A stretch of DNA of 29,926 nucleotides from a virus. Its lineage: Duplodnaviria; Caudoviricetes. Position 1 is the stretch's first letter. Each line of letters opens with the position of its first letter. The translations under genes and the position numbers were made by a program. Location of the stretch: positions 1 to 29,926 of IMG/VR virus record IMGVR_UViG_3300020045_005788; one strand, written 5' to 3'. This document shows, piece after piece, positions 1,684 through 21,894 of the stretch. The notes under the pieces were generated by a model, which made no database searches, was not told the DNA's origin, and saw only the letters and a list, made by a program, of their open reading frames with translations.

Positions 1684-1977
1684 ATGAGCGACAATCTCTG
1701 TGCAAAATGCGGTAAAGATGTGATAAATCTTTGGCAGACACCCACGCAGATAACGCGCATCATCCTCGTGGATGATCGAGGCGGCATAAAAATGCTGAAA
1801 GGTAAGAACGCTAGACGGGCTCTTATGGCCTACAGAGAATGGGTAAGGTACTCAAGAAACGGTTCATGGGAGAGCATGGACGCCTTGAACGAGTACACCG
1901 AAGCGGTAAATGAGCACATCTGGTATATAGATCAGATTCTTGATTCTTTTAAACCATTAGAAGTATACACCATCTAA
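1684..1977 (+). CDS. Hypothetical protein
   Basis: GAGGGG SD, CxxC near the N-terminus, fits operon spacing. Confidence 0.65.
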   Translation: MSDNLCAKCGKDVINLWQTPTQITRIILVDDRGGIKMLKGKNARRALMAYREWVRYSRNGSWESMDALNEYTEAVNEHIWYIDQILDSFKPLEVYTI

Positions 1978-1995
1978 GACCAGTAGGAGATAAGC

Positions 1996-2859: not shown

Positions 2860-2870
2860 AGGACAGACTA

Positions 2871-3782
2871 ATGCAACGCATTATTGGCTACAAAGGTTTT
2901 GATAAAAACCTACAGTGTCGTGGATTTCAGTATGAAATCGGGAAGGAGTATGCCCACAAGGGAGAGGTGGAAGCCTGCGAGGTGGGTTTCCACTGGTGTA
3001 AACACCCACTTGACACATTCAAGTACTACCCACCGATTGATGGCAATCGGTATTGCATTGTTGAGGGGTGGGGGGACATCTCCGAAGGAGATGATTCCAA
3101 GGTTGCGTCAAGCAACATCTGTATCTCTAGGGAAGTCACTCTAGCGGAGCTTATTAAGGCCGCGCCCTCCGCTACGAGCGGGGATTGTTCCCCCTTCGCA
3201 ACAAGCGAGAAGTGTTCCCCTTCCGCTACAAGCGGGGATTACTCCCTTTCCACTACAAGCGGGGGGTATTCCCCCTCCGCTACAAGCGGGAGGAATTCCC
3301 CCTCCGCTACAAGCGAGAAGTGTTCCCCTTCCGCTACGAGCGGGAAGTATTCCCGCTCCGCTACAAACGGGAGGAATTCCCCCTCCGCTACAAGCGGGGA
3401 TGATTCCCCCTCCGCTACAAGCGGGGATTACTCCCCTTCCGCTACAAGCGGAGATCGCTCCCGCTCCGCTACAAGCGGGGATGACTCCCCCTCCGCTACC
3501 AGCGGGGATTTTTCAACTTCTGTGACAAACGGGGGGCACTCCCCTGCAGCCGCAGGGGGAAGGAACTCTATAGCGGCAGCGCTAGGAACAAACTCTAAAG
3601 CTAAGGCCGGGGTAGGAGGGGCTATTGTCTTGACCTGCATATGTCCAACAACTCACGAGATACTCTCGGTGAGAGCATCCAAGGTAGGGGAGAACGGGAT
3701 ATTACCGGGAGTATGGTACTCCCTCGACAAAGATGGGAATTTTGTTGCGTGTGTGGCAGCTGATAATCAGGGGGCGCTATGA
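2871..3782 (+). CDS. Phage protein with a conserved KGFD...C..GFH.C..PLD...YY N-domain (DUF7666-like) and a 9-aa tandem repeat region
   Basis: N-terminal YKGFDKNLQCRGFQYEIGKEY...CEVGFHWCKHPLDTFKYY; central (TSGxxSPSA)n; C-terminal VGENGI.PGVWYSL..G.F. Confidence 0.8.
   Translation: MQRIIGYKGFDKNLQCRGFQYEIGKEYAHKGEVEACEVGFHWCKHPLDTFKYYPPIDGNRYCIVEGWGDISEGDDSKVASSNICISREVTLAELIKAAPSATSGDCSPFATSEKCSPSATSGDYSLSTTSGGYSPSATSGRNSPSATSEKCSPSATSGKYSRSATNGRNSPSATSGDDSPSATSGDYSPSATSGDRSRSATSGDDSPSATSGDFSTSVTNGGHSPAAAGGRNSIAAALGTNSKAKAGVGGAIVLTCICPTTHEILSVRASKVGENGILPGVWYSLDKDGNFVACVAADNQGAL
3174..3605 (+). repeat. 27-bp coding tandem repeat, 13 close units plus about 3 degenerate units
   Basis: Consensus ACAAGCGGGnnnnnnTCCCCCTCCGCT, encoding T-S-G-x-x-S-P-S-A. 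Confidence 0.9.
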
Positions 3783-3985
3783 GTTTGGAAACAACACAGA
3801 ATGACAGGGACATCGCTTTTAACACGTTAAAAGCGCAGGCGGAGCACCACGGGCTAGACCCCGATGATCCAAAGCTTATGGCCTTCCTCTGCCGCCATGC
3901 TGATGACCTTGCAGCGTGGTCTGCCCAAAGCCGTTGGTTGCAGGGCCTTGTGATGGCACAACTTGAAAAGGAGCTGAATGGATGA
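3779..3985 (+). CDS. Hypothetical protein
   Basis: ATGA overlaps at both ends; AGGGGG SD. Confidence 0.7.
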   Translation: MSLETTQNDRDIAFNTLKAQAEHHGLDPDDPKLMAFLCRHADDLAAWSAQSRWLQGLVMAQLEKELNG

Positions 3986-4410
3986 TTGAAGCGATCATCT
4001 TGTCATCACTTCTGTCTCTATCCCCGCACCAAGTGGATGAGCTGGGGTGTATGGTGGAAGCCCTCTACTATGAGGCGCGGAATGACACACAAGAGGGTAT
4101 GTCCGCTGTTGCATCCGTCATCATCAACAGAGTGCAACACCCAAAGTTCCACCACACCATCTGTGGGGTGATACGTGATGAAGGGAGCTTCAGTTATTAT
4201 TCAGATGGTAAGCCAGAGGACTTCCAGTTTGATGGTGTGGTGGACAGGAGGGCGTTTAACGTGGTTGTTGGGGTGGCCCTGACAGCGGTGAATGGAGCTC
4301 TTGTTGACAGGACAGGCGGAAGCTTGTATTATCACACGGTCGACGGGAAGCGGCCTAAGTGGGCATCCTCTAACGGCGTAACAATCGGAAAGCATGTGTT
4401 TTATAAATGA
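3982..4410 (+). CDS. Cell-wall hydrolase, SleB/Hydrolase_2 family
   Basis: CMVEALYYEAR (catalytic Glu), VASVIINRV...F..TIC.VI, FS, T.G.LYYH, IGKHVFY; hydrophobic N-terminus. Confidence 0.88.
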   Translation: MIEAIILSSLLSLSPHQVDELGCMVEALYYEARNDTQEGMSAVASVIINRVQHPKFHHTICGVIRDEGSFSYYSDGKPEDFQFDGVVDRRAFNVVVGVALTAVNGALVDRTGGSLYYHTVDGKRPKWASSNGVTIGKHVFYK

Positions 4411-4422
4411 GAGGGGTGACAA

Positions 4423-4593
4423 ATGACAGATGAGTTGTTTGATATTATCATTGAAACCGCTGTGGGTGAAACCAAGTCAAAGCTGCGCTTTAAAAACGCG
4501 GAGTGCTATGAGCGCTATATCATGGCGAACACCACAATGGCCGAGGAGATGTTCATTAGTGATAGAACCAAGGAAGGAAACATTAAGCACTGA
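4423..4593 (+). CDS. Hypothetical protein, 56 aa (not in ORF track)
   Basis: GAGGGG SD then ATG ACA GAT GAG: MTDELFDIIIETAVGETKSKLRF...IKH*. Better start context than the 4430..4663 frame. Confidence 0.55.
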   Translation: MTDELFDIIIETAVGETKSKLRFKNAECYERYIMANTTMAEEMFISDRTKEGNIKH

Positions 4594-4663
4594 ACGTGTG
4601 AAGTTTATGAGCCACAAACGCAGATGCGCATATCTACTTTTGGACAAAAGACTGGAGAGTTAG

Positions 4664-4894
4664 ATGGAGATACTAAGTATATTAGCACCAAATATGTTCG
4701 AGGCAGTGACACTTGCTTGGCTTATTGGTGTGTTCTACCACACAGAGTTATTCAATTTCACACACTACAATGAGATGAAAACCTATACCAATATACTGCA
4801 CATCTATTTGTGGCCGATTACGAGGGTTTTGTATTACATACATGTTGCATTCTGCAAGGTGCAGGGTTATACTCCTGCTGACTATTTTGAATAG
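4664..4894 (+). CDS. Hypothetical membrane protein
   Basis: GGAGAG SD, hydrophobic segments, LWP motif; followed by a hairpin. Confidence 0.6.
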   Translation: MEILSILAPNMFEAVTLAWLIGVFYHTELFNFTHYNEMKTYTNILHIYLWPITRVLYYIHVAFCKVQGYTPADYFE

Positions 4895-4914
4895 GGGCGA
4901 AAGCCCCTTAATTT
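4893..4914 (+). terminator. Probable intrinsic terminator or hairpin
   Basis: AGGGGC-GAAA-GCCCCT followed by TAATTT (weak U tract). Confidence 0.55.
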
Positions 4915-4927
4915 CGAGGGCGGGAAA

Positions 4928-5266
4928 ATGTATATAACAGAGGATGTCCTGCTAGCCGCAGGCTACCGAAAATTCGGGAAATGGCCGCCAAAAATAGCAG
5001 ACAACTTATTCCAGCGGCGGATCAGCGACGAGAACGGTACGCGATATTACATAGACATCTGGATGTACGACTGGAGTAAGTATCCACACCATATAGGTGA
5101 GTATAAGCAGGCTTTTGAGGCAGAGGCTTATTACAGTGATGGCATATCTGCTATACTGCACCATTGCGAGGAAAGAACACTGGAAAAAGTTGAGGAGTTC
5201 TTTGCTGACCTGTTTATCAAGTTCGGTGCAGGATACTACGAGATGGCTGGAGGGGTAGATGCTTAA
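4928..5266 (+). CDS. Hypothetical phage protein
   Basis: SD present; FQRRI.D..G.RYYID...VEEFF..LF...GAGYYE pattern; overlaps the next ORF. Confidence 0.7.
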   Translation: MYITEDVLLAAGYRKFGKWPPKIADNLFQRRISDENGTRYYIDIWMYDWSKYPHHIGEYKQAFEAEAYYSDGISAILHHCEERTLEKVEEFFADLFIKFGAGYYEMAGGVDA

Positions 5267-5483
5267 GTGGGTGGGTTATGGTGAGCTGAACACGGCGTTG
5301 AACATGCTACAAGAGGTTGGTGATGCGGCTTGGATAAGATCACAAGACACCCGGAGAAGTGAAATTGACAGGGCCAGAGATGAGGCATCCCACTCAGCTT
5401 ATGTTTACTGCCAGCACTTGTTGACTCATCTAGATAAATACCAGAGGTGTGACAATGAACCCGATCATCAAAATGTTGGTTGA
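5259..5483 (+). CDS. Hypothetical protein
   Basis: GGAGGGG SD; overlaps neighbouring ORFs. Confidence 0.6.
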   Translation: MLKWVGYGELNTALNMLQEVGDAAWIRSQDTRRSEIDRARDEASHSAYVYCQHLLTHLDKYQRCDNEPDHQNVG

Positions 5484-5622
5484 GCGTGACGGCATGTCCA
5501 TAAACGAGGCACGAGACCTTTTGAGGGAGGCGAGGGGTGCTGTGCGCGACGGGGAAGACCCCGAAGAAATCCTGCTGGACTGGTTTGGCCTAGAGCCTGA
5601 CTACCTCTTTGACCTGATCTGA
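5455..5622 (+). CDS. Small conserved-looking phage protein, 55 aa (not in ORF track)
   Basis: GAGGTG SD; MNPIIKMLVERDGMSINEARDLLREARGAVRDGEDPEEILLDWFGLEPDYLFDLI*. Confidence 0.7.
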   Translation: MNPIIKMLVERDGMSINEARDLLREARGAVRDGEDPEEILLDWFGLEPDYLFDLI

Positions 5623-5631
5623 GGACCACCT

Positions 5632-5865
5632 ATGACATCATTACGTGTTGCCGATGGGATACCGAAGGGGAGCTCCTGTTATGAAGCAGAGGTGTATGAT
5701 ATATTGGCCAACAGACGCTACATTGATGGGGTGTGCCCTTATTGGGGTAGCTGCCCTGATAAGAGCGCCATGACAAATGGGTACTGTAACCTTACAGGGA
5801 AGAAAGATTGGCAGGATGGCACATCTCTCTGGAATATGGATAAGTGCTGTGGAGAGAATTTGTGA
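5632..5865 (+). CDS. Cys-rich hypothetical protein
   Basis: GAGGA SD; IPKG..CY, CPYW, GYC, LW...K.CG.N; stop overlaps the next GTG. Confidence 0.7.
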   Translation: MTSLRVADGIPKGSSCYEAEVYDILANRRYIDGVCPYWGSCPDKSAMTNGYCNLTGKKDWQDGTSLWNMDKCCGENL

Positions 5866-6410
5866 GCAAGGTATTCTTTCTAAGTGACCTCCACTTCTTC
5901 CACAAGAATATCTGCAATATGCACCAAGGCCACCGTGTCGGGACGACAAGTGAGGAACACGACGAGTGGCTTATTGATGTATGGAACAGCAAAGTGAAAA
6001 AGCGTGACCTTGTTAAGGTGCTTGGTGATGTTTGCATGGGAGGGATAACTAATTCGGAACGATTGAGCATCATTGGTAAGCTGAACGGGACTAAGCACCT
6101 TGTGCTAGGTAACCATGATTGCTTTGCAATCAATGAATATACGAAGTATTTCAGTGCAGTCACTGGGCTTACCAAGTATAAAGGCTATTGGCTATCGCAT
6201 TGCCCTATTCATGAGGCTGAGCTACGGGGGAAGAAAAATATCCACGGGCACACACATTCAGCGGTCATGCTTGATTCGAGCGGAATACGAGATAGCAGAT
6301 ACGTCAATGTCTGTGTTGAGGCATCTGCCGATGGAGGGCCAATCCCTTTTGAGGATATTGTAAGCGGGGGGCACACAGGTATGCCAATTAAGAAAGAAGC
6401 CCCAATTTAG
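5862..6410 (+). CDS. Calcineurin-like metallophosphoesterase
   Basis: SDLH, LGDV, LGNHD, SHCP and HGHTH motifs. Start moved to GTG 5862 (GGAGAG SD, GTGA overlap). Confidence 0.9.
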   Translation: MSKVFFLSDLHFFHKNICNMHQGHRVGTTSEEHDEWLIDVWNSKVKKRDLVKVLGDVCMGGITNSERLSIIGKLNGTKHLVLGNHDCFAINEYTKYFSAVTGLTKYKGYWLSHCPIHEAELRGKKNIHGHTHSAVMLDSSGIRDSRYVNVCVEASADGGPIPFEDIVSGGHTGMPIKKEAPI

Positions 6411-6442
6411 GGGCGATGATACCAGGAATGGGTATGGGGAAG

Positions 6443-6464
6443 AGGGGCCGTAAGGCCCCTTTTT
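6443..6464 (+). terminator. Intrinsic terminator between convergent units
   Basis: AGGGGCC-GTAA-GGCCCCT-TTTT. Confidence 0.85.
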
Positions 6465-6469
6465 ATTGT

Positions 6470-8569
6470 TTAGATTTCACAGTTTCCGGCAGTACAGGCC
6501 AGGGTTTGAACACCCTGTGCATTGTCCTGATCCTCTTGTAGGCTGATGTTATCCCAGTCTACATTCGGCATCTCGCTTAGCATCTTATGATATTCCTCCT
6601 TTGTTATTGCCTCATAGGGGGCTTGCTTGTATGTATGGTCTGATCTAGGTAGAAAACTGACACCTGAGACAGAATCAAAATTCTTCCAAAGCCAAGCACC
6701 AACTTCCATAAACTCATCGTCAGAGTAATAGATGGTGATGGACGGCTTATGTTCACACCAGTGATCTTGATATGTTTTCCAGAAGTTCAACTGGTCAATA
6801 GCTGACAATTCATCCGTTGTAGTGCACCCCTCCGGGGCTTTAATTGGGAATGAAAATACAGCATTCGATGGATTCATAACATCGACTTCCCAAGGAAACC
6901 CCTCTGCTGCCATCCACTGTGTTAACGGGTCTTTCATATCACCACGGACGCGGCGGATGTAATATTCGGAAAATCTCGCGTGCATCCCACTGGACGCATC
7001 AACAAGCTGCGAAGCAGTCCCCTCTGGTTTTACACATGTTGCAGCAGCAGCTTGTTTTATGCCAAGCATACTTGCCCACTCCTTGTTGGTGTCAATCACA
7101 ACCTGCCTAATCCCCTCAAGACCAGCCTCAAGGCTTGTCCCACAGGGGAAGCCGAGTTGCTTCTTGCTTAGCACTAAATGATCCATAATCCCTGTCATGC
7201 TAACCCCAAGAAGGGCCTCATCTTCCGTGTTTGCCTTCCACTCCGGGCTAAGGTACTTAAAATCCGTCAGAGTAGCCTGCAACGTGCCCATAATAGCAGC
7301 ATTTCTGGCCTTCTTTTTGAGTTCCTCTAGCGTATCACTTGCTCTTACCACAATTGTGCTAAGGTTGCAAAACTGTTTTTGACGAAGAATTATTTCTGAG
7401 CACGGGTTAGTTCCAAAGTGCTTATACGCAGCCCTTCGCTTATTCTTAGCTGCTTGCCTCTCACTAGCTACACGAGAAAAGAAACCCCTCTCACCGCTCT
7501 TAGAATTATACAGATTAATCCACTCTTGCATAAATTGACTTACATCGGGCCTCTCCGTATAACAGACAGAGTTGTTTGCCAATCGGCGTTGTGGTTCTGT
7601 CTCCCACCAGTTACCGCTCTTTGCTGTCGCCATGCGCTGATCAGATAAGTTACTAAGGCTTAAACAAGCCGCCCGTCTTACACCGCCAACGACGACAACG
7701 TCACCGATCTTGCAGCAGAGGTCGTGGCACTCTAGGCTTGTCAATTTTCGGCCATACGCCCTTTTAAACATCTCTTTGGCGAATGTGAAAAGTTCTACTA
7801 GTGGTTCGGGCCCACTCGCCCTGCCACCAAAAGTTTTTAGCGGGGCACCTTTAGGGCGCACAGATGACACATCCCAGCTAACATCGAAGTTTCCATTATA
7901 CAGCTCAAATAGCAGGATTCGCAGCGATGACGCCCAGCCATATTTACTGTCGTGGACATGAATGGTGTTTGATCTCTTATCCAGAGTTGATATTTCCTCC
8001 CTGGGAACACCATTGAAGTTTTTGTTGTTTGGCAAGCAACCGCGCCTATTCAACTTTTTACCAACTTTGGGTAGATTGCTTATATACTGACGCTCAACAC
8101 TATATCCAACACCTGTACCACATAACAAAATATACATCATTTCATCAAAGTCTATCGGGTTTGACAGGTGTATTTCTATTGGCTCATCAATCTCATCGTG
8201 TGTTAGTTCAATTTTCTTTCCTGCACCCTTAATTGCAGTATATGAGCAACTATATCCGGCGACATTATCCCGCTCCAACGCAATACCGGCGCACATCAGT
8301 GAGCGCATTGAAGGTAAATCCTCTAACATCAGAATAGATGGTAGAACAACGTCATTAAACTCCCGCACCGCCTTTTCTGCATCCTCCTTCGACATTTTCT
8401 TATCAATCACGTCTGTGAAGAAGGAGCCATATCTTCCAACAGTCTCTGGCCACACTTCGCGACGTTTCAAGTTGTTTAGATAGCGCGAATAGCGACTAAT
8501 ATGAATATAACCTTGATAAGGGTCTAACTTAACACCATCCACCTTTTCCACCTCTTTGTTTTGATACAC
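6470..8569 (-). CDS. nrdJ: Class II (adenosylcobalamin-dependent) ribonucleoside-triphosphate reductase, monomeric type
   Basis: PSMR.L, LLCGTGVG, FGG.ASGPEPL, VVGGVRR.A, TNPCSEI, CVKPEGT.S, WCEHKPS.T, C-terminal CTAGNCEI. No adjacent nrdB in the window. Start codon uncertain. Confidence 0.9.
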   Translation of the reverse strand: MYQNKEVEKVDGVKLDPYQGYIHISRYSRYLNNLKRREVWPETVGRYGSFFTDVIDKKMSKEDAEKAVREFNDVVLPSILMLEDLPSMRSLMCAGIALERDNVAGYSCSYTAIKGAGKKIELTHDEIDEPIEIHLSNPIDFDEMMYILLCGTGVGYSVERQYISNLPKVGKKLNRRGCLPNNKNFNGVPREEISTLDKRSNTIHVHDSKYGWASSLRILLFELYNGNFDVSWDVSSVRPKGAPLKTFGGRASGPEPLVELFTFAKEMFKRAYGRKLTSLECHDLCCKIGDVVVVGGVRRAACLSLSNLSDQRMATAKSGNWWETEPQRRLANNSVCYTERPDVSQFMQEWINLYNSKSGERGFFSRVASERQAAKNKRRAAYKHFGTNPCSEIILRQKQFCNLSTIVVRASDTLEELKKKARNAAIMGTLQATLTDFKYLSPEWKANTEDEALLGVSMTGIMDHLVLSKKQLGFPCGTSLEAGLEGIRQVVIDTNKEWASMLGIKQAAAATCVKPEGTASQLVDASSGMHARFSEYYIRRVRGDMKDPLTQWMAAEGFPWEVDVMNPSNAVFSFPIKAPEGCTTTDELSAIDQLNFWKTYQDHWCEHKPSITIYYSDDEFMEVGAWLWKNFDSVSGVSFLPRSDHTYKQAPYEAITKEEYHKMLSEMPNVDWDNISLQEDQDNAQGVQTLACTAGNCEI

Positions 8570-8596
8570 CTGTTTCCACTCTAATCCCCTACAGAC

Positions 8597-8619
8597 AAAA
8601 AGACCGCCTTTCGGCGGCC
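8597..8619 (-). terminator. Intrinsic terminator just upstream of nrdJ
   Basis: Minus strand GGCCGCC-GAAA-GGCGGTC-TTTTT. Confidence 0.75.
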
Positions 8620-8636
8620 ATAGAGCCCTGCTGCCC

Positions 8637-8816
8637 TCACAATCTTGTTCTTGTTTTCGCGTGGAGTATCCCTATACGTGTCCATCCTACACCGTGCGTG
8701 AGTATACTGAACCAACCCACCACAAGGTACAGGGAAATCCATACCACCACTGTTATAATAAAGATCGGGAACAGTGCGAATACCGCCAACCGCAGCAATA
8801 ACTGTTTAAACATCAT
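8637..8816 (-). CDS. Small membrane protein
   Basis: AGAGGAG SD before ATGATG at 8816; long hydrophobic stretch. Confidence 0.55.
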   Translation of the reverse strand: MMFKQLLLRLAVFALFPIFIITVVVWISLYLVVGWFSILTHGVGWTRIGILHAKTRTRL

Positions 8817-9135
8817 CAGTCTCCTCTTTTGACCCGTCAAGCCCTTGCATACTCTCCCCAGTTAAAGCAGCCTCCTCAGAGAGATGGGCCGCCCACAGGG
8901 TCACCTTCGATGAAGCCAGCATCAGCTCTCTGCCATGCAATGCGTTCTCACTGAGGCCACCATAGTATTCCAGCTCTGCCCCTGTATTAAACATATGGAC
9001 TGACAGTTCGTACAGGTCTCTAACCAGCTCGTGTTTTGTTATTGGTGACGAGCCTTTAAGTGTTGTCATGTTTAATCGCATTCTTATACTGGTTGATAAT
9101 AGACTCTTTATCCCCGAGAGGAACACACTCCACAA
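8806..9135 (-). CDS. Hypothetical protein (true start probably internal)
   Basis: Fits the minus-strand operon; G.ELEYYGG....HG.EL..AS motif. Confidence 0.55.
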   Translation of the reverse strand: MWSVFLSGIKSLLSTSIRMRLNMTTLKGSSPITKHELVRDLYELSVHMFNTGAELEYYGGLSENALHGRELMLASSKVTLWAAHLSEEAALTGESMQGLDGSKEETDDV

Positions 9136-9149
9136 CCATGGTAAGCCAC

Positions 9150-9395
9150 CTATAGTTCAATTAACTCAACTGCAGTAATTCTGCAGTTGTTTGTCGTGAC
9201 CTCATAGGTCACCTGCATTTCTGCTTTCAGCGGAATGCACGATGTTGACACCACAACCATTAAGTGACTGTGGTAGTACTCCAACCTGTACCCGGATTCC
9301 CGGATAAACTCCTCCCCCTCGGTAAAATCTTCCTGAAGGAGACTGAAACAGTCCACCAGAAACTTTTCGCGATGACTCTCCATTTGAATTTTCAT
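9150..9395 (-). CDS. Hypothetical protein
   Basis: ATG ORF in the minus-strand gene array. Confidence 0.55.
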   Translation of the reverse strand: MKIQMESHREKFLVDCFSLLQEDFTEGEEFIRESGYRLEYYHSHLMVVVSTSCIPLKAEMQVTYEVTTNNCRITAVELIEL

Positions 9396-9451
9396 AAGAA
9401 AACCCCGGTAAGGTTAAGTGGATAAAGTAGCTCCTCTAATTTTTGGAAGAG

Positions 9452-10117
9452 CTACATCGAGATCGGAACCGAATCAAAATCCCTTGTGTATGTCAAGTAG
9501 TGCTTACCATCTTCCAATGAAATGCCTAGTTGTTCTGCCGTAGCCGCAAAGGTTTCATCACTCTCGTATTCAACACCATTAAAAGACTCAATGAAGTCGG
9601 TGACATGCTCTAAGGATATGAAATCTACATTCTTGCGTATGTCTAAGCCAATCTGGTGGTTATAATCCGGCCAGATATAAACACACTCTGCCGGTATCGG
9701 GTACATGAGTTTGTTTGTGTAATCTATTGTCAGCTCAGAAGACAGCCTTGCCCGCGTGCTGTGTTCCTCGCGCCAAGCTTCAGAGGGAGCGAACAGGGAG
9801 CAACTAGACAATCCGACTTTCTTGAATAAATCTTTCGGTTCGTTACTCTGTACGTACGGGTAAGCTACAAGCGCACACTCGTCAGCACGACCCCTTACAT
9901 TTGCTAAATAGTCAGATGCCGATGTTGACATTGTTGCAACCCAGAGGCATGGCATACCCTTGTGTACACCAAGGAAGCAGAAGTCTACATAGGGGTTATT
10001 CACGCGCGGGTCATCGAGAATGTTGTGGGTTGTGAAACCCACATACTCACTTTCCCCTAGTCTCTTTAGAAAGTCGTCCACCCACTCACTAGGTGAATCC
10101 TCACACACTTCGACCAT
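9452..10117 (-). CDS. Hypothetical protein
   Basis: 221-aa ORF with GGAG SD. Confidence 0.75.
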   Translation of the reverse strand: MVEVCEDSPSEWVDDFLKRLGESEYVGFTTHNILDDPRVNNPYVDFCFLGVHKGMPCLWVATMSTSASDYLANVRGRADECALVAYPYVQSNEPKDLFKKVGLSSCSLFAPSEAWREEHSTRARLSSELTIDYTNKLMYPIPAECVYIWPDYNHQIGLDIRKNVDFISLEHVTDFIESFNGVEYESDETFAATAEQLGISLEDGKHYLTYTRDFDSVPISM

Positions 10118-10133
10118 AAAAGATTACTCCGTC

Positions 10134-10337
10134 TTACTCTGTGTTAATAACAGCGTCTTTTCGCAGACAAATGCGATTGTTCCCGGTTACAAACAATACC
10201 CCGCCACGGCTTTCGCATGATGCACGGGAACCTGTGAGTTCAAAACTCGAAAGAATGGCAATAACAACGACAGATGTAATTAAACCCACAAAGATACCAA
10301 CTGCAGCGTAGAGCAGTGTTCCGCGATCTAAATTCAT
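10134..10337 (-). CDS. Small membrane protein with C...GG...C motif
   Basis: N-terminal TM helix; CESRGG...C. Confidence 0.6.
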   Translation of the reverse strand: MNLDRGTLLYAAVGIFVGLITSVVVIAILSSFELTGSRASCESRGGVLFVTGNNRICLRKDAVINTE

Positions 10338-10430
10338 TGTCTAAAAACCCCACTAATTTAAGCATCTTCAAGGTTATCGCCTAGCATACCAGTCAAGCCG
10401 GACGGCTTTCAGAAACACTTCAACTCCTTG

Positions 10431-10604
10431 TCAGGGCGCATTAAGCAGGCAGATACCCCACGTAACCAGTCCAGCCGCGATAATCGCTTCAAGCGCCACT
10501 GCAAGCGGTACAGGCTCTTGGATCGTACCTATACTGAGCCAAATTACTTTGATGATAGCATCACATGCCATGAGAACCACAAGTACCCAAATAAATGTTT
10601 CCAT
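10431..10604 (-). CDS. Small two-TM membrane protein, 57 aa (not in ORF track)
   Basis: GAAGGGG SD; METFIWVLVVLMACDAIIKVIWLSIG...ALEAIIAAGLVTWGICLLNAP*. Confidence 0.6.
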   Translation of the reverse strand: METFIWVLVVLMACDAIIKVIWLSIGTIQEPVPLAVALEAIIAAGLVTWGICLLNAP

Positions 10605-10735
10605 CTAGCAACCCCTTCAAATTTACCCCAATGTTCAACCGATAGCGACCGTCGCCGTTTACCACTTAACTTCAACAGCGCTTGTAGTAGCAAGCCGCTG
10701 CGCCATGTGTATGTTAAGCTGCACATGAACATCTG

Positions 10736-10975
10736 TCAACATTGCGCACTGAAAAGATCATCACCGCACCGTTGCAACACCGCTTCATCCGTCACACCAA
10801 AGAGGATTGAGTCCACCCCACAATAGGGGCAGAGGGCTGTCGTTTCCTCGTCACACCACTCAAGGATAGCTGCGCTATCAAACACACGGCAGCAGTAGTA
10901 ACAACCGCACATTTCGTGCTTATCTTGTTGCCAGCGATTATTAATCGCCATAGCTAGCACATCAATCTCACTCAT
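10736..10975 (-). CDS. Zn-ribbon-like small protein
   Basis: CGCYYC...EW.D...TALCPYCGVDSI; AAGGTGG SD. Confidence 0.75.
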   Translation of the reverse strand: MSEIDVLAMAINNRWQQDKHEMCGCYYCCRVFDSAAILEWCDEETTALCPYCGVDSILFGVTDEAVLQRCGDDLFSAQC

Positions 10976-11062
10976 TTAAAGCCACCTTGCAGGTTTATAA
11001 ATGTGGTGAACACACACAAAATCAACAACTTACCCGATGTCAACGACATACGTGTCGTCGTG

Positions 11063-11272
11063 TTAGTAATCCCCTCTCAGGAATTGCCCTAACTCTACCC
11101 AATCCCCGACATCAAGGGTCACAGCCCCACCGTTCTCTGAACAGTAGTTAGCCATATCTTCGAGTGTACATAACCACAAATCTCTCCCTGCGTCAACAGA
11201 ATCGTCACGCAGGGACTTATAGGCCCGGAGGGCTTGTTTTAATTTTGACGGGTACACCGTAACTGTTGCCAT
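11063..11272 (-). CDS. Hypothetical protein
   Basis: TAATG coupling with the upstream ORF. Confidence 0.65.
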   Translation of the reverse strand: MATVTVYPSKLKQALRAYKSLRDDSVDAGRDLWLCTLEDMANYCSENGGAVTLDVGDWVELGQFLRGDY

Positions 11273-11544
11273 TACCCTTTATCCGCTGCCAATAGGTCTT
11301 CAAGTTTTTCTTTGATATATTCCACCGCGCTGAAATATCCATCGTCAACAGAGTGATTCCCATGCACGCCGTACCGCCCATCGGGCCGTTTTAGCACCGC
11401 CTCTAGCTCAGCAACAAAATCCGCTACACGCTGCTCAAGGATGTCCCCGGAGTAGGAGAATTCCAGCCGCACCGTGAGATCAGGCTTCTGCGGAGTCTGC
11501 CATTCAACCGCGTCACTCTTAACCCCCATCTCAAAACTTGTCAT
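11272..11544 (-). CDS. Hypothetical protein
   Basis: GGGTGG SD; first ORF downstream of the structured RNA region. Confidence 0.65.
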   Translation of the reverse strand: MTSFEMGVKSDAVEWQTPQKPDLTVRLEFSYSGDILEQRVADFVAELEAVLKRPDGRYGVHGNHSVDDGYFSAVEYIKEKLEDLLAADKG

Positions 11545-11575
11545 CGTCCACCCATAAAATAGTTAACGCAATGGT

Positions 11576-11915
11576 TGATTCACCCGTCAGTTGTGCGCGG
11601 GGATTACTGGGCCTACACAGACCCGCGGCCCTACGGGTTCCAGTCGGCTGCCCACTGACAACCCCCAACTGTGCTTTGGTACAGGAATTTTAAACTCTAC
11701 CCTAGTTTGACATACTTCCTTGGGTTTGACAGCACCCCCAGCAGCATCGCTGTCGAGCTCTCCCGCTGCCTATACCAAGGCATTAGGCCACCATCCTCGC
11801 CCTTGTCCCCACAACATGATGCATGTTTCCATGCAGCATCCCCCAGTGTGATGACAAGGCCGAGCAGTTCATCCCTTCGCAGGGATGACACCTGCCCGAT
11901 GAACCAGTCCCGATT
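11576..11915 (-). ncRNA. Candidate ~340-nt structured RNA (ncRNA or long leader)
   Basis: Begins just after a consensus promoter. Contains hairpins with GCGA and GAAA tetraloops and a 9-bp terminal closing helix (see findings). Structure assigned by eye. Confidence 0.55.
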
Positions 11916-11921
11916 AAGTCT

Positions 11922-11949
11922 AGTATAACACATCATCAAACCCTGTCAA
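11922..11949 (-). promoter_or_regulatory. Sigma70-type promoter with extended -10
   Basis: TTGACA-N16(...TGTGT)-TATACT on the minus strand. Confidence 0.8.
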
Positions 11950-12099
11950 TAGCACCAGTGAAATTAGTTTTTAGGGTACACCTGTTGAAACGTAGACGTT
12001 TCGTATGACACCCCTAAAGTATTACATTCTTTAAGATAGACACTGTATTTAGTATATTATATAACTAACTAATATATAATAACTAAATACTAGTAATAC

Positions 12100-12168
12100 T
12101 CTTTCCTACGGAAAGATTAGTCTTAATGTTCTTTCAGAACATATAGTCCTCTTATTCCTACGGAATGA
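12100..12168. repeat. Three 17-bp palindromes with 3-nt centres at 26-bp period, in an AT-rich tract
   Basis: TCTTTCC-TAC-GGAAAGA (12100), ATGTTCT-TTC-AGAACAT (12126), TTATTCC-TAC-GGAATGA (12152). Confidence 0.8.
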
Positions 12169-12179
12169 TTATATCTCTT

Positions 12180-12207
12180 ATATTATCACAGAAGTCCAAT
12201 TTGTCAA
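12180..12207 (-). promoter_or_regulatory. Sigma70-type promoter
   Basis: TTGACA-N16(...TGTGA)-TAATAT on the minus strand. Confidence 0.6.
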
Positions 12208-12300
12208 GACCCAAAGGCTTATGATATTTAAATCTAAGCGTTGTGTTTTAATAGAACTAAAGATTATAGGTTATTTTATAAATATTTTCATTCTGTCCTA

Positions 12301-12328
12301 TTGACAAACAGACAACTTGTGTTATACT
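12301..12328 (+). promoter_or_regulatory. Sigma70-type promoter with extended -10
   Basis: TTGACA-N16(...TGTGT)-TATACT, with an AT-rich upstream tract. Confidence 0.8.
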
Positions 12329-12380
12329 TAACACATAGGACACAGATTGTGCCGGCACAGATAAGAACAATAGGTTTGAA

Positions 12381-12816: not shown

Positions 12817-12984
12817 ATGCAGATTAATCTTTCAACCTTGTCTGACGACGAGATAGACATCCTGTTGTGGTTGGATAAAGCACATAGACAGGTGGTGGAA
12901 GCGCGCAAGGCGCTTGAGGGAGTTTTGAGTGGAAGAAGAAGAGAATATCAGCAAGTCAAAGAGGGGCTTTGCATCACACCCTGA
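12817..12984 (+). CDS. Hypothetical small protein
   Basis: GGGAG SD then ATG 12817 (MQINLSTLSDDEID...); overlaps the TerS-like ORF by 56 bp. Confidence 0.4.
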   Translation: MQINLSTLSDDEIDILLWLDKAHRQVVEARKALEGVLSGRRREYQQVKEGLCITP

Positions 12985-13285
12985 GCTTATCAACCGTGGT
13001 GGCCGCCCCCTTGGAACAAGAAACAAGATTCCTTCTGAGGAAGACTTCCTCGATGCAATCAAAGGGTGCCGTACAGAGGTTATCCAGAAGATAGTTGGCA
13101 TTATGCGCCGTAGCGCAGATGACAAGACACAGCTCAAGGCGGCAGTGAAATTGCTTGATGCAAACTACCAACTGCTTCTCGATGAAGATGAGTTGACACT
13201 CAAGAAGAACAAGAAGAAAGATTCTAATGGTGCTCAGCCAAAAACACAAGTGTGTAAAGTAATTAATCTGCGTGGTGAGCAATGA
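12929..13285 (+). CDS. Putative terminase small subunit
   Basis: GF..HPE.IN..GRP.G.RNK motif, helical core QLKAA.KLL, GAGGGG SD, upstream of terL. Confidence 0.6.
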   Translation: MEEEENISKSKRGFASHPELINRGGRPLGTRNKIPSEEDFLDAIKGCRTEVIQKIVGIMRRSADDKTQLKAAVKLLDANYQLLLDEDELTLKKNKKKDSNGAQPKTQVCKVINLRGEQ

Positions 13286-15518: not shown

Positions 15519-16073
15519 ATGGAACAAATTGCAAGTGCTGGCCTTGGTGCCTTGGCAAACATCGTTATGCAACCCGTGACACACTACGCAGCGTTTGCAT
15601 CCACGCACTATGATGTGGAATGTTATGACAAAGACGGCAACCTGAAATGGGTTGACGGGTTTGATAATCTAGTTGTTAACACTGGTCTAGATGACATCTT
15701 AAATAAGTATTTTAAGGGTAGCTCCTATACTGCTGCGCACTACGTTGGTCTGAAGGGTGCAGGAACTATTGCTGCTGCTGACACTATGGCATCCCATGCC
15801 GGGTGGGCTGAATCAACTGCCTACTCTGAGGGTGCAAGACAAACACTGACTCTTGGGTCTGTCTCAGGCCAAAGTGTCAGCAACTCAGCATCTAAGGCGG
15901 TGTTCAGTATTAATGGCACAGCCACCATCGCAGGTGCATTTCTTGCCACTGACAGTACAAAAGGTGGCACCAGTGGGACGCTGTATGGAGCTGGTGATTT
16001 TTCTGGTTCACGCTCTGTTGAGAGCGGTGATACACTCAATGTTACTGCAACATTGACGCAGGCTGCATCCTAA
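15519..16073 (+). CDS. Fibre-associated structural protein
   Basis: KW.D...NLVVN.G...IL...F; SN.AS.A.F.IN.T.TI.GAFL...K.GT.G.L...F...RSV.SGDTLNVT; AAGGA SD. Confidence 0.7.
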   Translation: MEQIASAGLGALANIVMQPVTHYAAFASTHYDVECYDKDGNLKWVDGFDNLVVNTGLDDILNKYFKGSSYTAAHYVGLKGAGTIAAADTMASHAGWAESTAYSEGARQTLTLGSVSGQSVSNSASKAVFSINGTATIAGAFLATDSTKGGTSGTLYGAGDFSGSRSVESGDTLNVTATLTQAAS

Positions 16074-16085
16074 CAATAAAAAGGA

Positions 16086-16373
16086 ATGCCGATGAAAGTT
16101 TTTAAAAAGACGCCGGATGGCATTCTTGATTATGGGTTGGACTGGGTAAGTTGGCTTGAGGAAGGGGATACTATCGTAGCCTCTGAGTGGGAAGCCGACA
16201 CAGGTGTCACGGTGGACTCTGACGAGTTTACTACAACACTGACCACAGCCTTTATCTCCGGCGGTAGTATACACAAGAGCTACAACATCACAAATACAAT
16301 AACCACTGATGGTGGTAGGACGACATCACGTTCAATACGCATAGATGTCGTTCCTAAAATTTATGAAGAATAA
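16086..16373 (+). CDS. Fibre-tail adaptor-like protein
   Basis: K.P...LDY.LDW..WL..GDTI..SEW...T.AFISGG.....Y.ITN.ITT..GR...RSI.I.V. Confidence 0.7.
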   Translation: MPMKVFKKTPDGILDYGLDWVSWLEEGDTIVASEWEADTGVTVDSDEFTTTLTTAFISGGSIHKSYNITNTITTDGGRTTSRSIRIDVVPKIYEE

Positions 16374-16376
16374 AGG

Positions 16377-16631
16377 CGTTGCACTCAGGCAGGTGGCCAC
16401 TCTCTGAACAGCAATGATAAATGTTATTGCGCGGGTAATAATAACTTCGGTGCTCTGCCATCGGTAAAGTAGTCCACGCGCAATAACCCTTTCCCTTTTG
16501 GTACCACCCTTTTATGGATTACTGCACCGCCACCTCATCTGTGCAGGACAAGAGTGTGGGAGTCCCCCTCCAAGTTCTCCCTCCCACATTCCTCCATGAA
16601 TTTTTAGTTTATAAGTCGTTACGGAGAACTA
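16377..16631 (+). ncRNA. Structured 5' leader of terL
   Basis: Four helices, a 7-nt loop-loop complement, and an 8-nt loop complement to the terL RBS (see findings). Confidence 0.6.
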
Positions 16632-18062
16632 ATGACGGAATTAACATGGCAAGATATTAAGCCGCAGGAAGGTAAGCAAACTCTCGCCTTCCGCCGCATT
16701 GACGAAGTAGATTTCATGGTGTTTGGTGGTGCTCGTGGGGCAGGTAAAACAGACCTCATCACCATGCTGCCACTGAAAGATTTGCATGACGGTTTTAGTA
16801 GATTTATTTATTTTCGAAGGGAATATGCTGAGATAATGGGGTCAAATGGACTCTGGGAGAAGGCTAGTAAATACTTCCCCTATTTTGACGGTAAGCCGCA
16901 TTTATCCGCTGCAAAATGGTCTTTCCCGTCTGGTGCATCTGTACGTTATAGTCACATGTTCCAAGAGTCTGATAAAGAGAGACACAAAGGGCTTGGTTAT
17001 ACAGGTATCTTCTTTGACGAGATTGACCATTTCTCCAAGGATCAGGTACAGTATCTTCTGACGTGTCTGCGTTCAGAGGCTAAACGTTCGAGCTACTGTG
17101 TCGGAACGGTCAACCCAGACCCGGACTCATGGGTTTTACCGTTGATTGAATGGTATCTGGATGAAAGGGGTTTTCCTGACGAAGAGAAGTGTGGAAAAAT
17201 AAGGCATTTCGTTGTCAAGGATGGGGAGTTTATCTTCTCCGACCATGAAGAGTCCTTCATGGAGACACACCCAGATATAGTCAACCCTTTTATACCGGGG
17301 CGCGGTAATGTTTACATCCGGCCAAAGCGGTTTACATTCATAAACGGCAACTGTTTTGACAACCCGATAAACTTAGCCAAAAACCCTACATATTTGTCGG
17401 AGCTGAATAGCCTCCCGGATCACGAACGTGATAGGCAACTTTGGGGGAACTGGTATGCCAGACCTGCTGGAAGTAACTACTTCCAACGAGATTGGCTTGT
17501 ACCCGTTGACAAAATCCCCTTCGGGACGAGGAAGTGCAGAGCTTGGGATAAGGCATCCTCAGAGCCTTCAGATACAGTGCCATCCCCCGACTTCACGGCT
17601 TGCAGCCCTATAGTGCATAAATGCAAGAATGGGTACTTCTACCTTGAGTGGAGTGTCTTAGACAACATCTGTGACGATGTAGGAGCCAAGAACGCTGACC
17701 CTGAGGTAAAGGGGCGCTTTAGAAAGCGCGCTGGCGAGCGTGACAGGATGATACTTCAGCAGTCCATTGCTGACGGTGTTGACTGTAAGATAGTTATTGC
17801 GATTGATCCGGGATCGAATGGTAAGGATGCTTTTGAGTCAATGGCCAAAAGTTTTGTATCGGAAGGGTTCCAAGTGGTGTCTGACCCGATGCCATCTACG
17901 AAAAGCAAGATGATACGTTTTGAGCCTTTTGCAACAGCAGCTCAGAATGGTTTAGTTAGGGTATTAAAAAGTTCATTCCCGAATGAGAAGACATACAACG
18001 CCTTTATGAAGGAGTTGGAAGCCTTTAACGGGGAGAGATCAACGTCAACAAGAAAAGACGAT
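16632..18062 (+). CDS. terL: Terminase large subunit, exon 1
   Basis: PQEGKQ, Walker A GGARGAGKT, Walker B IFFDE, TVNPD, RAWDKA, D.TA, K..RFEP, EL..F....RKDD, then broken by the intron. Confidence 0.93.
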
Positions 18063-18397
18063 TAACGCAAAAGCAAAGTTGTCTATAAACCTCTTTAATT
18101 GCTGGAAACCCTGCCGTATATACGCCAGACAATCAGCAGCGAAGCCCGATAAGGGAACGTTCAACGACCATCGAAATCACGGGAAACCGGAAGAGAGTAG
18201 AGTAGGGGTTAAGTAACCCCGAAAAGGGAGGCTCTGGATACAGAGAAGATATGGTCTAATCTGCATGGTGACATGCAGCTTCAATTTAAACAAGTGTCCA
18301 TAAATCCAACGGTGCAAAAACCGGCTTGGGGAAATACAAGAGGACACTCCTCAAATTGAAGGGCAATGATTAACGATCTTTGTCTAATAGAAAAATG
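18063..18397 (+). mobile_element. Group I self-splicing intron (IA2-like), no homing endonuclease ORF
   Basis: P1 GACGAU/GUUGUC with U-G at the splice site; P AATTGCTGGAAA, Q AATCAGCAG, R GTTCAACGACCA, S AAGATATGGTC; P8 and P9 hairpins; terminal G18397; P10 GCAAA/UUUGC. Confidence 0.93.
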
Positions 18398-18532
18398 TTT
18401 GCAGACGCAACAGCATCCGCTTTTAACTTTATAAATAAATCCCGCAACATTGACATTGTTGTGCGTAACCAGACAACTACACAAACTCTATCGTCTAGTG
18501 TCTTACATGAGATGAATTTCACGATAGATTAG
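18398..18532 (+). CDS. terL: Terminase large subunit, exon 2 (44 aa)
   Basis: FADATASAFNFINKSRNIDIVVRNQ...TID*. Splicing restores RKDD-FADA...AFN; spliced product 521 aa. Confidence 0.9.
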   Translation, partial: FADATASAFNFINKSRNIDIVVRNQTTTQTLSSSVLHEMNFTID

Positions 18533-18558
18533 CAAAGCCTTAGAGGGGCCAAGAGAGA

Positions 18559-18879
18559 ATGGAAAAGAAGATAATCACCGAGCGCAGACGCGATCCACAC
18601 GGTGTGGCGTCATTCTTCAAGCGGATTCAAGAATCCTTGGATGATGGCTGGCGGTTTGTTGATGCAACAAAATGGAGCGAGATGCCGTCGTTGTTTCCTG
18701 TCCTGACAGTGTGGATGTGTAAAGGTGAAGCCCCCGCGGTTGAGCCTGTACAGGATGCCGAAGAGCAAATGGAAAATGTCGTCGATGACGTTGCTGACGA
18801 AACTGTCGCCAGCCAGCCAGAAGAAAAGCAGAACCGGCCCGGAAGAAAGCCCTCAAAAGTTGGCCAATATAAAAAATAA
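18559..18879 (+). CDS. Hypothetical protein with acidic and low-complexity C-terminus
   Basis: ORF between terL and portal with a purine-rich SD. Confidence 0.7.
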   Translation: MEKKIITERRRDPHGVASFFKRIQESLDDGWRFVDATKWSEMPSLFPVLTVWMCKGEAPAVEPVQDAEEQMENVVDDVADETVASQPEEKQNRPGRKPSKVGQYKK

Positions 18880-18893
18880 TCTTGGAGCGATAG

Positions 18894-20468
18894 ATGCCAG
18901 ATAAGAATGTTAGAAAGGCTGAGACATCTGGCAGGGTTATCGTTCCCACCAGCAGGGAAACAGGTCAACCTCTTGCCATTACAAGCTCTTATTTTATACA
19001 AGAGGCAAAGAAGACGGAGCTTCGGATGCCAGCAAGGTTAACAACCTTTGACGTAATGAGCGAGGACGATGCGGTATTCAACTCGATTGATTATACCAAC
19101 CTCCATGTTGCAAACGCCCTCTGGAAGGGAAAGGTTGTTCCTAAGAGAACGCAGACGAGCAAGATAGCGGCTGAATTCCTTAATTACTGCCTTCACAACA
19201 TGTCCAGTGGCACATGGTATGAGGCTGTAAACAGTGCATGCGCCGACTTGAAATATGGTTTCTCCCTGCAGAATTTCATCATCGAGAAAAGAAATAGGGG
19301 TCAGTATCCCGGCAGCTATGTCTTGAAGAAGTTGTCCCCCCGAAACCAGCATACTGTTGCTGGATGGGTATGGGATGATAATTTCAGAGATGTCATCGGT
19401 TTTGTGCAGAAGCCTATGACGCGACAGGTTACAAACCACCTGTGGGTGGATGACGGCCTGACGAGGCTCACAGCTGCAAGGTGGCAGGAAACCGGCTACA
19501 ACCTTTTGTGGAATAACCAATACCTCCACTATCGGCATAATCCGTCAGATGGAAACCCGCAAGGTGATCCACCCCTCTTGCATTGCTACAATGCTTGGAA
19601 GGAAAAGAGGCTCATTGAGAAATATGAGCTTGTGGGCGTTAGCAAGGATTTAGGTGGCTCAATCGTTCTTAGGGTGCCATCGGAGCTTATCCGCCAAGCC
19701 AATGACCCCGCCAACTACCCCGCAGCCGCAGCGGAGTATGCAGCCTTGCAAGCCAATGCAGCAGCTCTACACGCTGGCGAGAGCGTCCTTATTGTTCTCA
19801 CATCTGACACGGATGACGTGAGTAATAAGTACCTTTACGACTTCGATCTTAAGGGTATTGATGGTGGAGGTAAGCAGTATAACACTTCGGACATTATTGA
19901 CCAGAAAAGAAAAAGCATTTACAACGTATTCGGTACAGGTTTCTTGCTGCTTGGTCAAAGCACTGTTGGATCATATAACCTCAGCTCATCTGGAACATCC
20001 ACTCACGGATTTTACGTTGAGAGGTGCATTAACCAGAAAGTTGATGTGATCAATACGCAGCTCATCCCGCGCCTTCTGGCGGCTAATGACATCCGCCTTG
20101 ATTGGAAGGACATGCCTGAGTTTATCCCATCTGAAACGGGAGAGATTGATTTTGACATCTGGGGCAAATTTATCCAGCGTTCTAAATCGGTTAATGCTCT
20201 GACGAAGGAAGCCCTTGAGTATATCTACGAGAAGGCTGGCCTTCCTTTAGACGGGCTTGATGAGATTGACTTCTCTGACAAAGGTCAGAGTAGGGCTGGT
20301 GAGAGCATGGGCACATCTGGAACGGGTAGCTCACAGCAGGGTTATGATGCCTCCACAGCGAACAACGAGAACGCTGCCACTAAGTCACTTGTCGTTGACA
20401 AAGTGACGGATGATGAGGTGGTGCTGATTGACACTAACACAGGGAATCCCTTGCATATTCCGCGATAG
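18894..20468 (+). CDS. Portal protein
   Basis: 524 aa, after terL; D..V, A.FL.YCL, YGFS, NP.G.PPL..CY.AWKEK, IN.QLIP.L...N. Confidence 0.85.
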   Translation: MPDKNVRKAETSGRVIVPTSRETGQPLAITSSYFIQEAKKTELRMPARLTTFDVMSEDDAVFNSIDYTNLHVANALWKGKVVPKRTQTSKIAAEFLNYCLHNMSSGTWYEAVNSACADLKYGFSLQNFIIEKRNRGQYPGSYVLKKLSPRNQHTVAGWVWDDNFRDVIGFVQKPMTRQVTNHLWVDDGLTRLTAARWQETGYNLLWNNQYLHYRHNPSDGNPQGDPPLLHCYNAWKEKRLIEKYELVGVSKDLGGSIVLRVPSELIRQANDPANYPAAAAEYAALQANAAALHAGESVLIVLTSDTDDVSNKYLYDFDLKGIDGGGKQYNTSDIIDQKRKSIYNVFGTGFLLLGQSTVGSYNLSSSGTSTHGFYVERCINQKVDVINTQLIPRLLAANDIRLDWKDMPEFIPSETGEIDFDIWGKFIQRSKSVNALTKEALEYIYEKAGLPLDGLDEIDFSDKGQSRAGESMGTSGTGSSQQGYDASTANNENAATKSLVVDKVTDDEVVLIDTNTGNPLHIPR

Positions 20469-20486
20469 GGTAGGGAATGAAAATAG

Positions 20487-21224
20487 ATGACAAGCAATAA
20501 AATAGAGAAGGCTCTATATAATGATAAACATGCAGCTTTAAGCCGCGCATGTGGATCAAAATTTAATAAAAGTGAGAACGGTGAATACTACTGGGTGACG
20601 GACTTTGATGATGAGTATGTCTACATCTGCGAGTCTGGTGAGGTCTATCGTTGTACGTACACATACTACGCTAGCGGTGATGTAACACTCGGCGACGAGA
20701 TGGTTCATGTTAACAGACAAACAGAGTACGTCGTATCTTCTGTTCAAGAAGATGAAGACGAGATGATGGAAAAGTCTGTTGAAAGCGCCATGATCAAATT
20801 CTTCAAGAAGCATTTTGGTGGAAGCACAAGAGGTGACGTCCTCCCCACTATCAAGGCGCTCAACGAAGAAGAAATGATCGCTGTTGAGCCGATGTATGTC
20901 CCGCCTGAAACGCCCGATGGTGTTGGCGAGGGGATGAAGGAAGAGCACATCCGCAAGATGGTTGACAGTGCTAATAGGGCCATTTCCGATGGCCGGATGA
21001 AGGCAAATCTATTCCACAAGAAAACCACTGACAAGTTCTCCTTTTTGCGTGCATGGGTAAATGAGTGTGATTGCATAATTGGTGAGTCCTTAGTTAAGAA
21101 GGGGCAGCCTATCGTGGAAGTGCAATTCAATGACAAAGCCCTCTGGGAAGCACGTAAGAGTGGAAAAATCATGGGACTCTCAATCGGAGCAAAATGTAAG
21201 TCCAAGAGGAAGGTAGATGGCTAA
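20487..21224 (+). CDS. Prohead protease, XkdF-like
   Basis: E.MY.P...D..GE, N.FH, LWE..KSG...GLSIG; follows portal. Confidence 0.8.
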   Translation: MTSNKIEKALYNDKHAALSRACGSKFNKSENGEYYWVTDFDDEYVYICESGEVYRCTYTYYASGDVTLGDEMVHVNRQTEYVVSSVQEDEDEMMEKSVESAMIKFFKKHFGGSTRGDVLPTIKALNEEEMIAVEPMYVPPETPDGVGEGMKEEHIRKMVDSANRAISDGRMKANLFHKKTTDKFSFLRAWVNECDCIIGESLVKKGQPIVEVQFNDKALWEARKSGKIMGLSIGAKCKSKRKVDG

Positions 21225-21876: not shown

Positions 21877-21894
21877 CTAAGGAGTTAAATAATA

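Follow-up and report, generated by a model that had tools for sequence, protein, structure and literature searches.

At the head of a leftward operon, the minus strand of a myophage record carries a genuine promoter and, after it, a 5' domain whose structure is also genuine, together with a tRNA-like end that was not expected. The record, a virus sequence of 29,926 bases that was analysed over its whole length (the window), comes from a distant relative of Alteromonas phage PT11-V22 (30% identity in the capsid). The helix that closes the fold, together with the ACCA immediately 3' of it, forms an acceptor end of the alanine type that has no T arm, which went unnoticed in the original prediction for this region. 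The element is a singleton, and an overlapping reading frame gives it a live coding rival. An early, promoter-driven structured RNA that is new to Rfam, as first proposed, is still the best reading, although much of the 3' fold proposed with it did not hold. We consider it possible, at a little short of an even chance, that a discrete tRNA-ended RNA of ~335 nt (11906-11572) is released by tRNA-processing enzymes.

Promoter and operon setting

The element adjoins an AT-rich divergent promoter region, and its composition agrees with the earlier description of a GC-rich island next to an AT-rich tract. The promoter (11922..11949, minus strand) is of the sigma70 type, TTGACA-16-TATACT with an extended TG, and it matches 11 of the 12 consensus positions, which bears out the consensus promoter first reported here; its spacing would place the transcription start near 11915. 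A divergent near-twin (12301..12328, plus strand) would serve the rightward packaging and head genes, which start at 12381 and include terminase and portal. A second leftward promoter (12180..12207, minus strand; 10 of 12 matches, TG) could transcribe a 79-codon ORF that overlaps the element. The leftward operon begins at 11544, where its first clear gene (11272..11544, minus strand) encodes a protein of 90 aa with no homologue, and its last gene encodes a class II-type ribonucleotide reductase (6470-8569). Between the acceptor-like end and this operon lies an AU-rich spacer (11545..11571, minus strand) that includes the ribosome site of the 90-aa gene. Between the promoter and the first gene we found no terminator, no terminator/antiterminator pair and no switch, and the antitermination element that had been offered as one option for the RNA finds no counterpart there.

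The divergent control region itself (11950-12330) is AT-rich, with two leftward promoters and one rightward twin, and contains a 17-nt repeat (12103-12119 and 12155-12171) with small palindromes. The cumulative GC skew of the window turns in this region, which may be an origin or operator region. Elsewhere in the window, a consensus-like promoter lies at 4304-4331 (plus strand) inside an endolysin-family gene (3982-4410), and genes for an RNA ligase and a polynucleotide kinase, possibly a tRNA repair pair, lie near each other at 341-2859 (plus strand).

Folding of the 5' and 3' domains

All of the sequence strings quoted in the original prediction were found on the minus strand at the positions that it had assigned to them. 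The region 11570-11920 folded with a z score of -3.8, and none of 100 shuffles was as good. This is not an extreme value here, since a crude tiling with 176 tiles (6 shuffles per tile; mean z -0.9, sd 1.5) placed the element's minus-strand tile only 15th in the window. The strongest folding scores in the window belong to a tandem 9-residue repeat of the SPSATSG type, within the gene of a 303-aa protein (2871-3782, plus strand; PHROG 4433). The folding signal of the element comes from its two 5' hairpins, H1 and H2, since 11800-11911 gave a z score of -4.5 (0 of 100 shuffles as good), whereas the 3' 228 nt (11572-11799) gave -0.95 and were equalled by 18 of 100 shuffles. The expectation that the RNA would fold better than its shuffles is thus borne out for the 5' third and fails for the 3' 228 nt.

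In the 5' domain, H1 (11861..11898, minus strand) is capped by a GCGA tetraloop and its inner 8 bp are well predicted, while H2 (11801..11859, minus strand) is a long interrupted hairpin with a GAAA tetraloop and a UGGGGG bulge. Two GNRA-capped hairpins of at least 5 bp appeared in none of 1000 shuffles of this domain. Ensemble pair probabilities over 11572-11911 were 0.93 for the closing helix, 0.94 and 0.48 for the inner and outer parts of H1, respectively, and 0.99 for H2. The closing helix, H1 and H2 of the original prediction are present, and both GNRA hairpins are intact, but the closing helix and H1 cannot both be full length because they share base 11898; the outer part of H1 and an extended closing helix are alternatives.

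The tip of H2 (11820-11836, minus strand) forms about the same GNRA hairpin as P9 of a group I intron in the window's terminase gene (18262-18278, plus strand), and it is identical over 17 nt to P9 of the terminase intron in four relatives (L079, L080, L428 and L438; E ~0.1). Only this tip resembles the intron; the group I intron model finds the terminase intron (72.5 bits) and nothing in the RNA region. The intron lies in the large terminase gene at 17993-18397 (plus strand; Rfam match at 17993-18278). By eye it extends from about 18063 to 18397, with the frame resuming at 18398 as FADATASAFNF, which matches the relatives' consensus KDDWADAxASAFNY. Terminase introns are also found in several relatives.

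The fold of the 3' domain (11585..11800, minus strand) is uncertain. One helix proposed for it, H4 (11728-11754), was recovered with a pair probability of 0.73, but the GCCUA/UAGGC hairpin and the long H5 (GUCAGU/ACUGAC, 11586-11659) both had pair probabilities of 0.00. When the complete original fold was forced, it reached -109.8 kcal/mol as compared to -144.8 kcal/mol, a cost of 35 kcal/mol. The ensemble favours pairing of 11785-11791 with 11625-11631 and of 11769-11778 with 11676-11685, together with H4 and local structures at 11635-11664 and 11609-11624. Two tertiary features that were considered, a tetraloop receptor in GCCUA/UAGGC and a pseudoknot in H5 (ACUGG/CCAGU crossing GCGGG/CCCGC), had no model support and were dropped.

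UGGGGG was reported to occur three times in apparently unpaired positions. The three copies are present, all on the minus strand, and copy 1 (11840..11845), in the bulge of H2, is predicted to be mostly unpaired; the prediction is mixed for copy 2 (11735..11740), and copy 3 (11662..11667) is predicted to be mostly paired. A fourth UGGGGG lies at 11528, in the next gene. Three copies have a nominal p of 0.038 (5000 shuffles), some 6-mer reaches at least three copies in 1354 of 2000 shuffles, and the repeat is no more than the G-richness of the sequence would give. That the RNA acts as a sponge, capturing a protein or the anti-Shine-Dalgarno tail of the ribosome through its UGGGGG copies, is very improbable in our estimate. 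The bulged copy 1 and the resemblance of the motif to the G-run ribosome sites of many early genes are in its favour, while the repeat is not significant against shuffles, copy 3 is predicted to be paired, and GGA occurs 9 times as compared to 7.8 in shuffles, with no excess of the Csr/Rsm type. G-run ribosome sites (GGGG, GAGGGG) precede many small or early genes at 144-12000, and the structural genes at 16000-29900 mostly have GGAG or AAGGAG. Two other ideas were rejected: TGTCA, present five times in the element, occurs 81 times on the window's minus strand, and some 5-mer reaches five copies in 795 of 2000 shuffles; for an antisense role, the longest perfect complement to 37 start regions was 9 nt, as in shuffles.

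The acceptor-like end and the overlapping reading frame

The closing helix joins 11898..11906 (5' strand) to 11576..11584 (3' strand), both on the minus strand, and ACCA follows directly at 11572..11575. In tRNA numbering the end reads U1-A72, G2-C71, G3·U70, A73 and CCA. G3·U70 is described as the main identity mark for alanine, with G1-C72 and G2-C71 conserved in bacterial tRNA-Ala (PMC9976931). Two of these three pairs fit, and U1-A72 departs from G1-C72. The RNA contains neither a T arm nor a T loop, as there is no TTCRA in it and the 3' strand of the helix is not preceded by a stem-loop; there is likewise no cloverleaf with anticodon and T arms, such as a tRNA or an allo-tRNA would have.

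To judge this end against chance, we used a test devised after the feature had been seen, in which the helix must start within the first 20 nt of the transcript; the helix boundary came from the original prediction, which had been made without the CCA. A 9-bp end helix was found in 629 of 3000 transcript shuffles, in 21 when followed by NCCA, in 4 when followed by ACCA, and in none when G3·U70 was also present. For a 7-bp version the corresponding counts were 2729, 166, 41 and 6. We also scanned 202 relative loci, some of them overlapping, and the window for helix-plus-NCCA stretches, which gave 402 candidates. The element had the lowest energy per base of all 402, a ranking made without GC correction. 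A73 with G3·U70 was found in 10 candidates and a promoter pattern upstream in 5, and only the element had both; the nine other stretches with A73 and G3·U70 were without a promoter.

The helix depends on where the transcript ends. Transcripts that stop at 11545 or earlier gave it a probability of 0.82-0.93, and this was 0.00 when the fold included the first codons of the next gene (to 11500 or beyond). Two folds are therefore possible, which is one argument that the region is a structured 5' leader, remaining on the operon and controlling translation or stability of the genes that end in ribonucleotide reductase. Part of the ribosome site that serves the 90-aa gene is paired in the prediction, and, as described above, no terminator precedes the first gene. 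Such a leader would have no need of a CCA tail, no terminator/antiterminator pair accompanies it, and no riboswitch family, cobalamin included, matched at E up to 10. We regard this explanation as quite unlikely.

The length of the RNA is near that of tmRNA. A highly eroded tmRNA would also account for the paired ends, G3·U70, A73 and CCA, all of which the element shares with tmRNA and with the TLD-only tmRNA of mycobacteriophage DS6A, one of the phage tmRNAs that have been described (PMC4131195). It differs from them in having no T arm and no recognizable D-loop or tag frame (three frames were read by eye and none was tag-like), in its U1-A72 pair, and in a helix of 9 bp rather than 7 bp. ARAGORN and the Rfam tmRNA models found nothing in it, and we consider a tmRNA origin highly unlikely.

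The 79-codon ORF (11936..11697, minus strand; alternative start 11939) begins in the promoter spacer and is a singleton; that a minus-strand ORF starts inside the promoter had been noted before and is confirmed. It was then dismissed too quickly, because the source's (JGI) gene finder called it and because the only variants seen in H1 fit coding better than pairing. The 5' two thirds of the element could accordingly be an ordinary gene of 79 codons, transcribed from the promoter at 12207-12180, with the hairpins as mRNA structure and the 11949 promoter serving the downstream genes. Other consensus promoters of this phage are likewise inside genes or at gene ends, and neighbouring real-looking genes also lack homologues.

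The properties of the ORF itself argue the other way. An ORF of at least 79 codons occurred in 716 of 5000 shuffles. Its codon score of -0.008 is below that of 22 of 23 presumed small genes (0.03-0.41), the exception being one that overlaps another gene. The score is intermediate, and 7 of 37 shadow ORFs score higher. The ribosome site was among the weakest tested (-3.2 kcal/mol), the protein had no homologue (one spurious match to a repeat protein was seen), and its Atlas pLDDT was 0.45. Two short ORFs, 11783-11697 and 11832-11770 (minus strand; ~28 and ~20 codons), also lie in the RNA, each with a strong run resembling a ribosome site upstream and a start codon that is predicted to be paired.

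Six freshwater DNA runs had small shares, and sequence variants were taken from isolated 151-nt records of four of them; differences below a depth of 5 may be errors. One record from run X5 (11791-11941), whose depth of 4.5 falls in that range, differs at four letters, of which three were located (11865, 11871 and 11874). All three are in the 3' strand of H1 and break inner or outer pairs, and they fall at third positions of the 79-codon ORF, where two are silent and one changes Asp to Glu. Three of three at third positions would occur by chance once in 27, in what is a single low-depth record. In an ORF of 85 codons on the plus strand, whose codon score is that of junk, these changes are silent as well, and the phase may therefore be luck. 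A second X5 record has three other letters, two of them located, one turning a G·U pair into A-U and one breaking a weak helix. Overall, four of the five located X5 changes break predicted pairs, and all five are to A on the RNA strand. The three in H1 weaken that hairpin from -24.7 to -9.5 kcal/mol, H2 is untouched, and the closing helix falls to 0.15 when all five are introduced. A record from run X2 covering 11651-11801 has one other letter. These records may represent one or two amplified molecules, and the variants are real but thin evidence against strong selection on H1. The protein-gene explanation also leaves the helix plus ACCA unexplained. We judge it unlikely, yet still to be reckoned with.

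Relatives of the locus and a proposed role

Searches for known families agreed with the earlier statement that the element has no tRNA, tmRNA, RNase P or riboswitch core. No Rfam family scored at or near its gathering threshold at the element, the RNase P, GOLLD and ROOL models did not match it, and ARAGORN called no tRNA anywhere in the window. Brief resemblances to motifs of tmRNA, RNase P, cobalamin and Y RNA were dropped, as no model supported them. Searches for homologues were also negative within their scope. By blastn there was no real match in phage records or plasmids, blastn and nhmmer found no homologue in 80 terminase loci and 122 portal loci, BLAST found none in 45 whole records, and single-protein locus searches returned nothing. 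Among exact or degenerate sequence patterns, two each matched at least 119 stretches of viral contigs; for the first, none of the matches listed extended, and those listed for the second were chance matches. Of further patterns in viral contigs, one gave no match and another gave two, neither extending and one of them in a coding frame, and a scan of metagenome contigs gave none. Three covariance models, each built from this one sequence and hence limited in reach, were also applied. R1 and R2 found no real match in 50 + 50 records and 73 loci, and R3 matched only the window itself among 100 sources, including the T4 locus, with no real match in 45 records; the best scores, 14-18 bits, fell in coding, AT-rich or promoter DNA. 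Many of the records searched are fragments, and the nearest relatives reached as DNA have only 55-59% identity in terminase or portal; relatives at 63% in terminase and 67% in portal are also known. The adjacent 90-aa gene likewise lacks any relative in a set of 5.8 billion proteins, which indicates that this lineage is unsampled, so the lack of homologues says little about the element. Literature listings and abstracts gave no description of this RNA, and a relative may be present in tables of candidate viral RNA motifs that are not in Rfam.

Genes for tRNAs lie near this locus in several related phages. Among ten distinct relatives of the 118-aa gene (12929-13285), one of which has no upstream DNA, three have tRNAs within 2.5 kb upstream, and in three more tRNAs lie just downstream of the match to this gene. 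Leftward-strand tRNAs occur in the same genome region in several other relatives, and in some, eroded tRNA-like pieces, recognized by eye, stand directly behind the leftward promoter. In L012, a GC-richer stretch behind such a promoter (6400-6960, minus strand) has several of these pieces, which neither ARAGORN nor Rfam called. In L036 (5680-6100, minus strand; the same in L005 and L006), the promoter lies in a long palindrome and is followed by what by eye is a broken tRNA-like element ending in ACCA. The element thus appears to stand roughly where its kin keep tRNAs, which lends loose support to the tRNA-like reading.

The element could also be what is left, in decay and no longer under selection, of an RNA gene or array at the former tRNA locus. 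The eroded pieces heading the leftward operons of relatives, the 3' domain that folds no better than shuffles, and the mostly pair-breaking X5 changes, all to A, are in keeping with a relic. In the window, on the other hand, nothing is missing from the promoter, the two GNRA hairpins or the ACCA end, and the X2 record has almost no change; we hold a relic to be improbable.

On the reading that we prefer, a discrete tRNA-ended RNA, the promoter would give a long early leftward transcript whose first ~345 nt fold, with the 5' end pairing to 11576-11584 and ACCA left free in the manner of a tRNA acceptor. A short 5' leader (11907..11915, minus strand) contains a GG whose predicted partner, as long as the leader is present, is the CC of the CCA tail, and host RNase P would remove these ~9 nt. 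RNase P is known to cut acceptor-stem model substrates and pre-4.5S RNA (PMC11143913). An endonuclease, for which the spacer at 11545-11571 is the candidate cut site, together with trimming would then free the 3' end, in the manner of tRNA precursors, and a stable RNA would be released, as happens with phage tRNAs and with the species 1 and 2 RNAs of T4.

It is the T4 species 1 and 2 RNAs that the element would work most like. These are processed by RNase P. Two small stable non-tRNA RNAs are annotated in the T4 tRNA cluster (NC_000866) as species 1 and 2 (rnaC and rnaD); in sequence, rnaC shows a T arm and rnaD is followed by CCA. The T4 RNAs are non-decoding and have tRNA-like 3' ends, and the element, with its acceptor helix plus ACCA, would resemble them in this. 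The T4 RNAs, at ~140 and ~120 nt, are less than half as long, and they lie in a tRNA cluster, whereas the element stands alone behind its own promoter, lacks the T arm that species 1 keeps, and has no similarity to them. Large structured phage RNAs are also known in GOLLD and ROOL, whose function is described as unknown and which often lie near tRNA islands (10.1101/2024.12.08.627333), and in the ~800-nt ncRNA of ICP1 (PMC7567579). The element is about half their size or less and has an acceptor-like end, while the main text of the GOLLD and ROOL report contains no instance of CCA (10.1101/2024.12.08.627333). It shares an acceptor helix of more than 7 bp with allo-tRNAs, which have 8/4 or 9/3 acceptor branches, but those described fold as cloverleaves, complete with T, D and anticodon arms (PMC5389517), none of which the element has.

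With no T arm, anticodon or tag, the RNA should neither decode nor rescue ribosomes, and its likeliest job would therefore be to present its acceptor-plus-CCA end. An abundant end of this kind, possibly charged with alanine, may soak up host enzymes that act on tRNA ends; this is the weakest step of the scheme. Anti-phage toxSAS toxins recognize the CCA together with the first five acceptor pairs, and they also modify minihelices; tRNAs encoded by phages have been reported as a counter to defences that target tRNA (10.1101/2024.07.05.602228). By analogy, a decoy for enzymes attacking acceptor ends would be the likeliest function if the RNA is released, though one we would expect in fewer than half of such cases, and so unlikely overall. 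The specific form, a ~335-nt RNA that is alanine-charged or presents an acceptor-plus-CCA end without a T arm and acts early against defences directed at tRNA 3' ends, seems to us rather unlikely. Otherwise the acceptor end may serve just for processing, as the handle of a core that does something else.

Since it is a singleton and one variant record speaks against it, the element is a lead and not a family. Phage tRNA loci already hold non-decoding RNAs, among them T4 species 1 and 2, GOLLD, ROOL and the TLD-only tmRNA, and a long RNA with just the acceptor helix and CCA of a tRNA would extend this collection. Such an RNA is invisible to ARAGORN and Rfam, and a scan for a promoter, an end helix and NCCA might find more of them. 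If the decoy reading is true, this would be an RNA counter-defence that mimics the acceptor end only and has a large folded body of its own.
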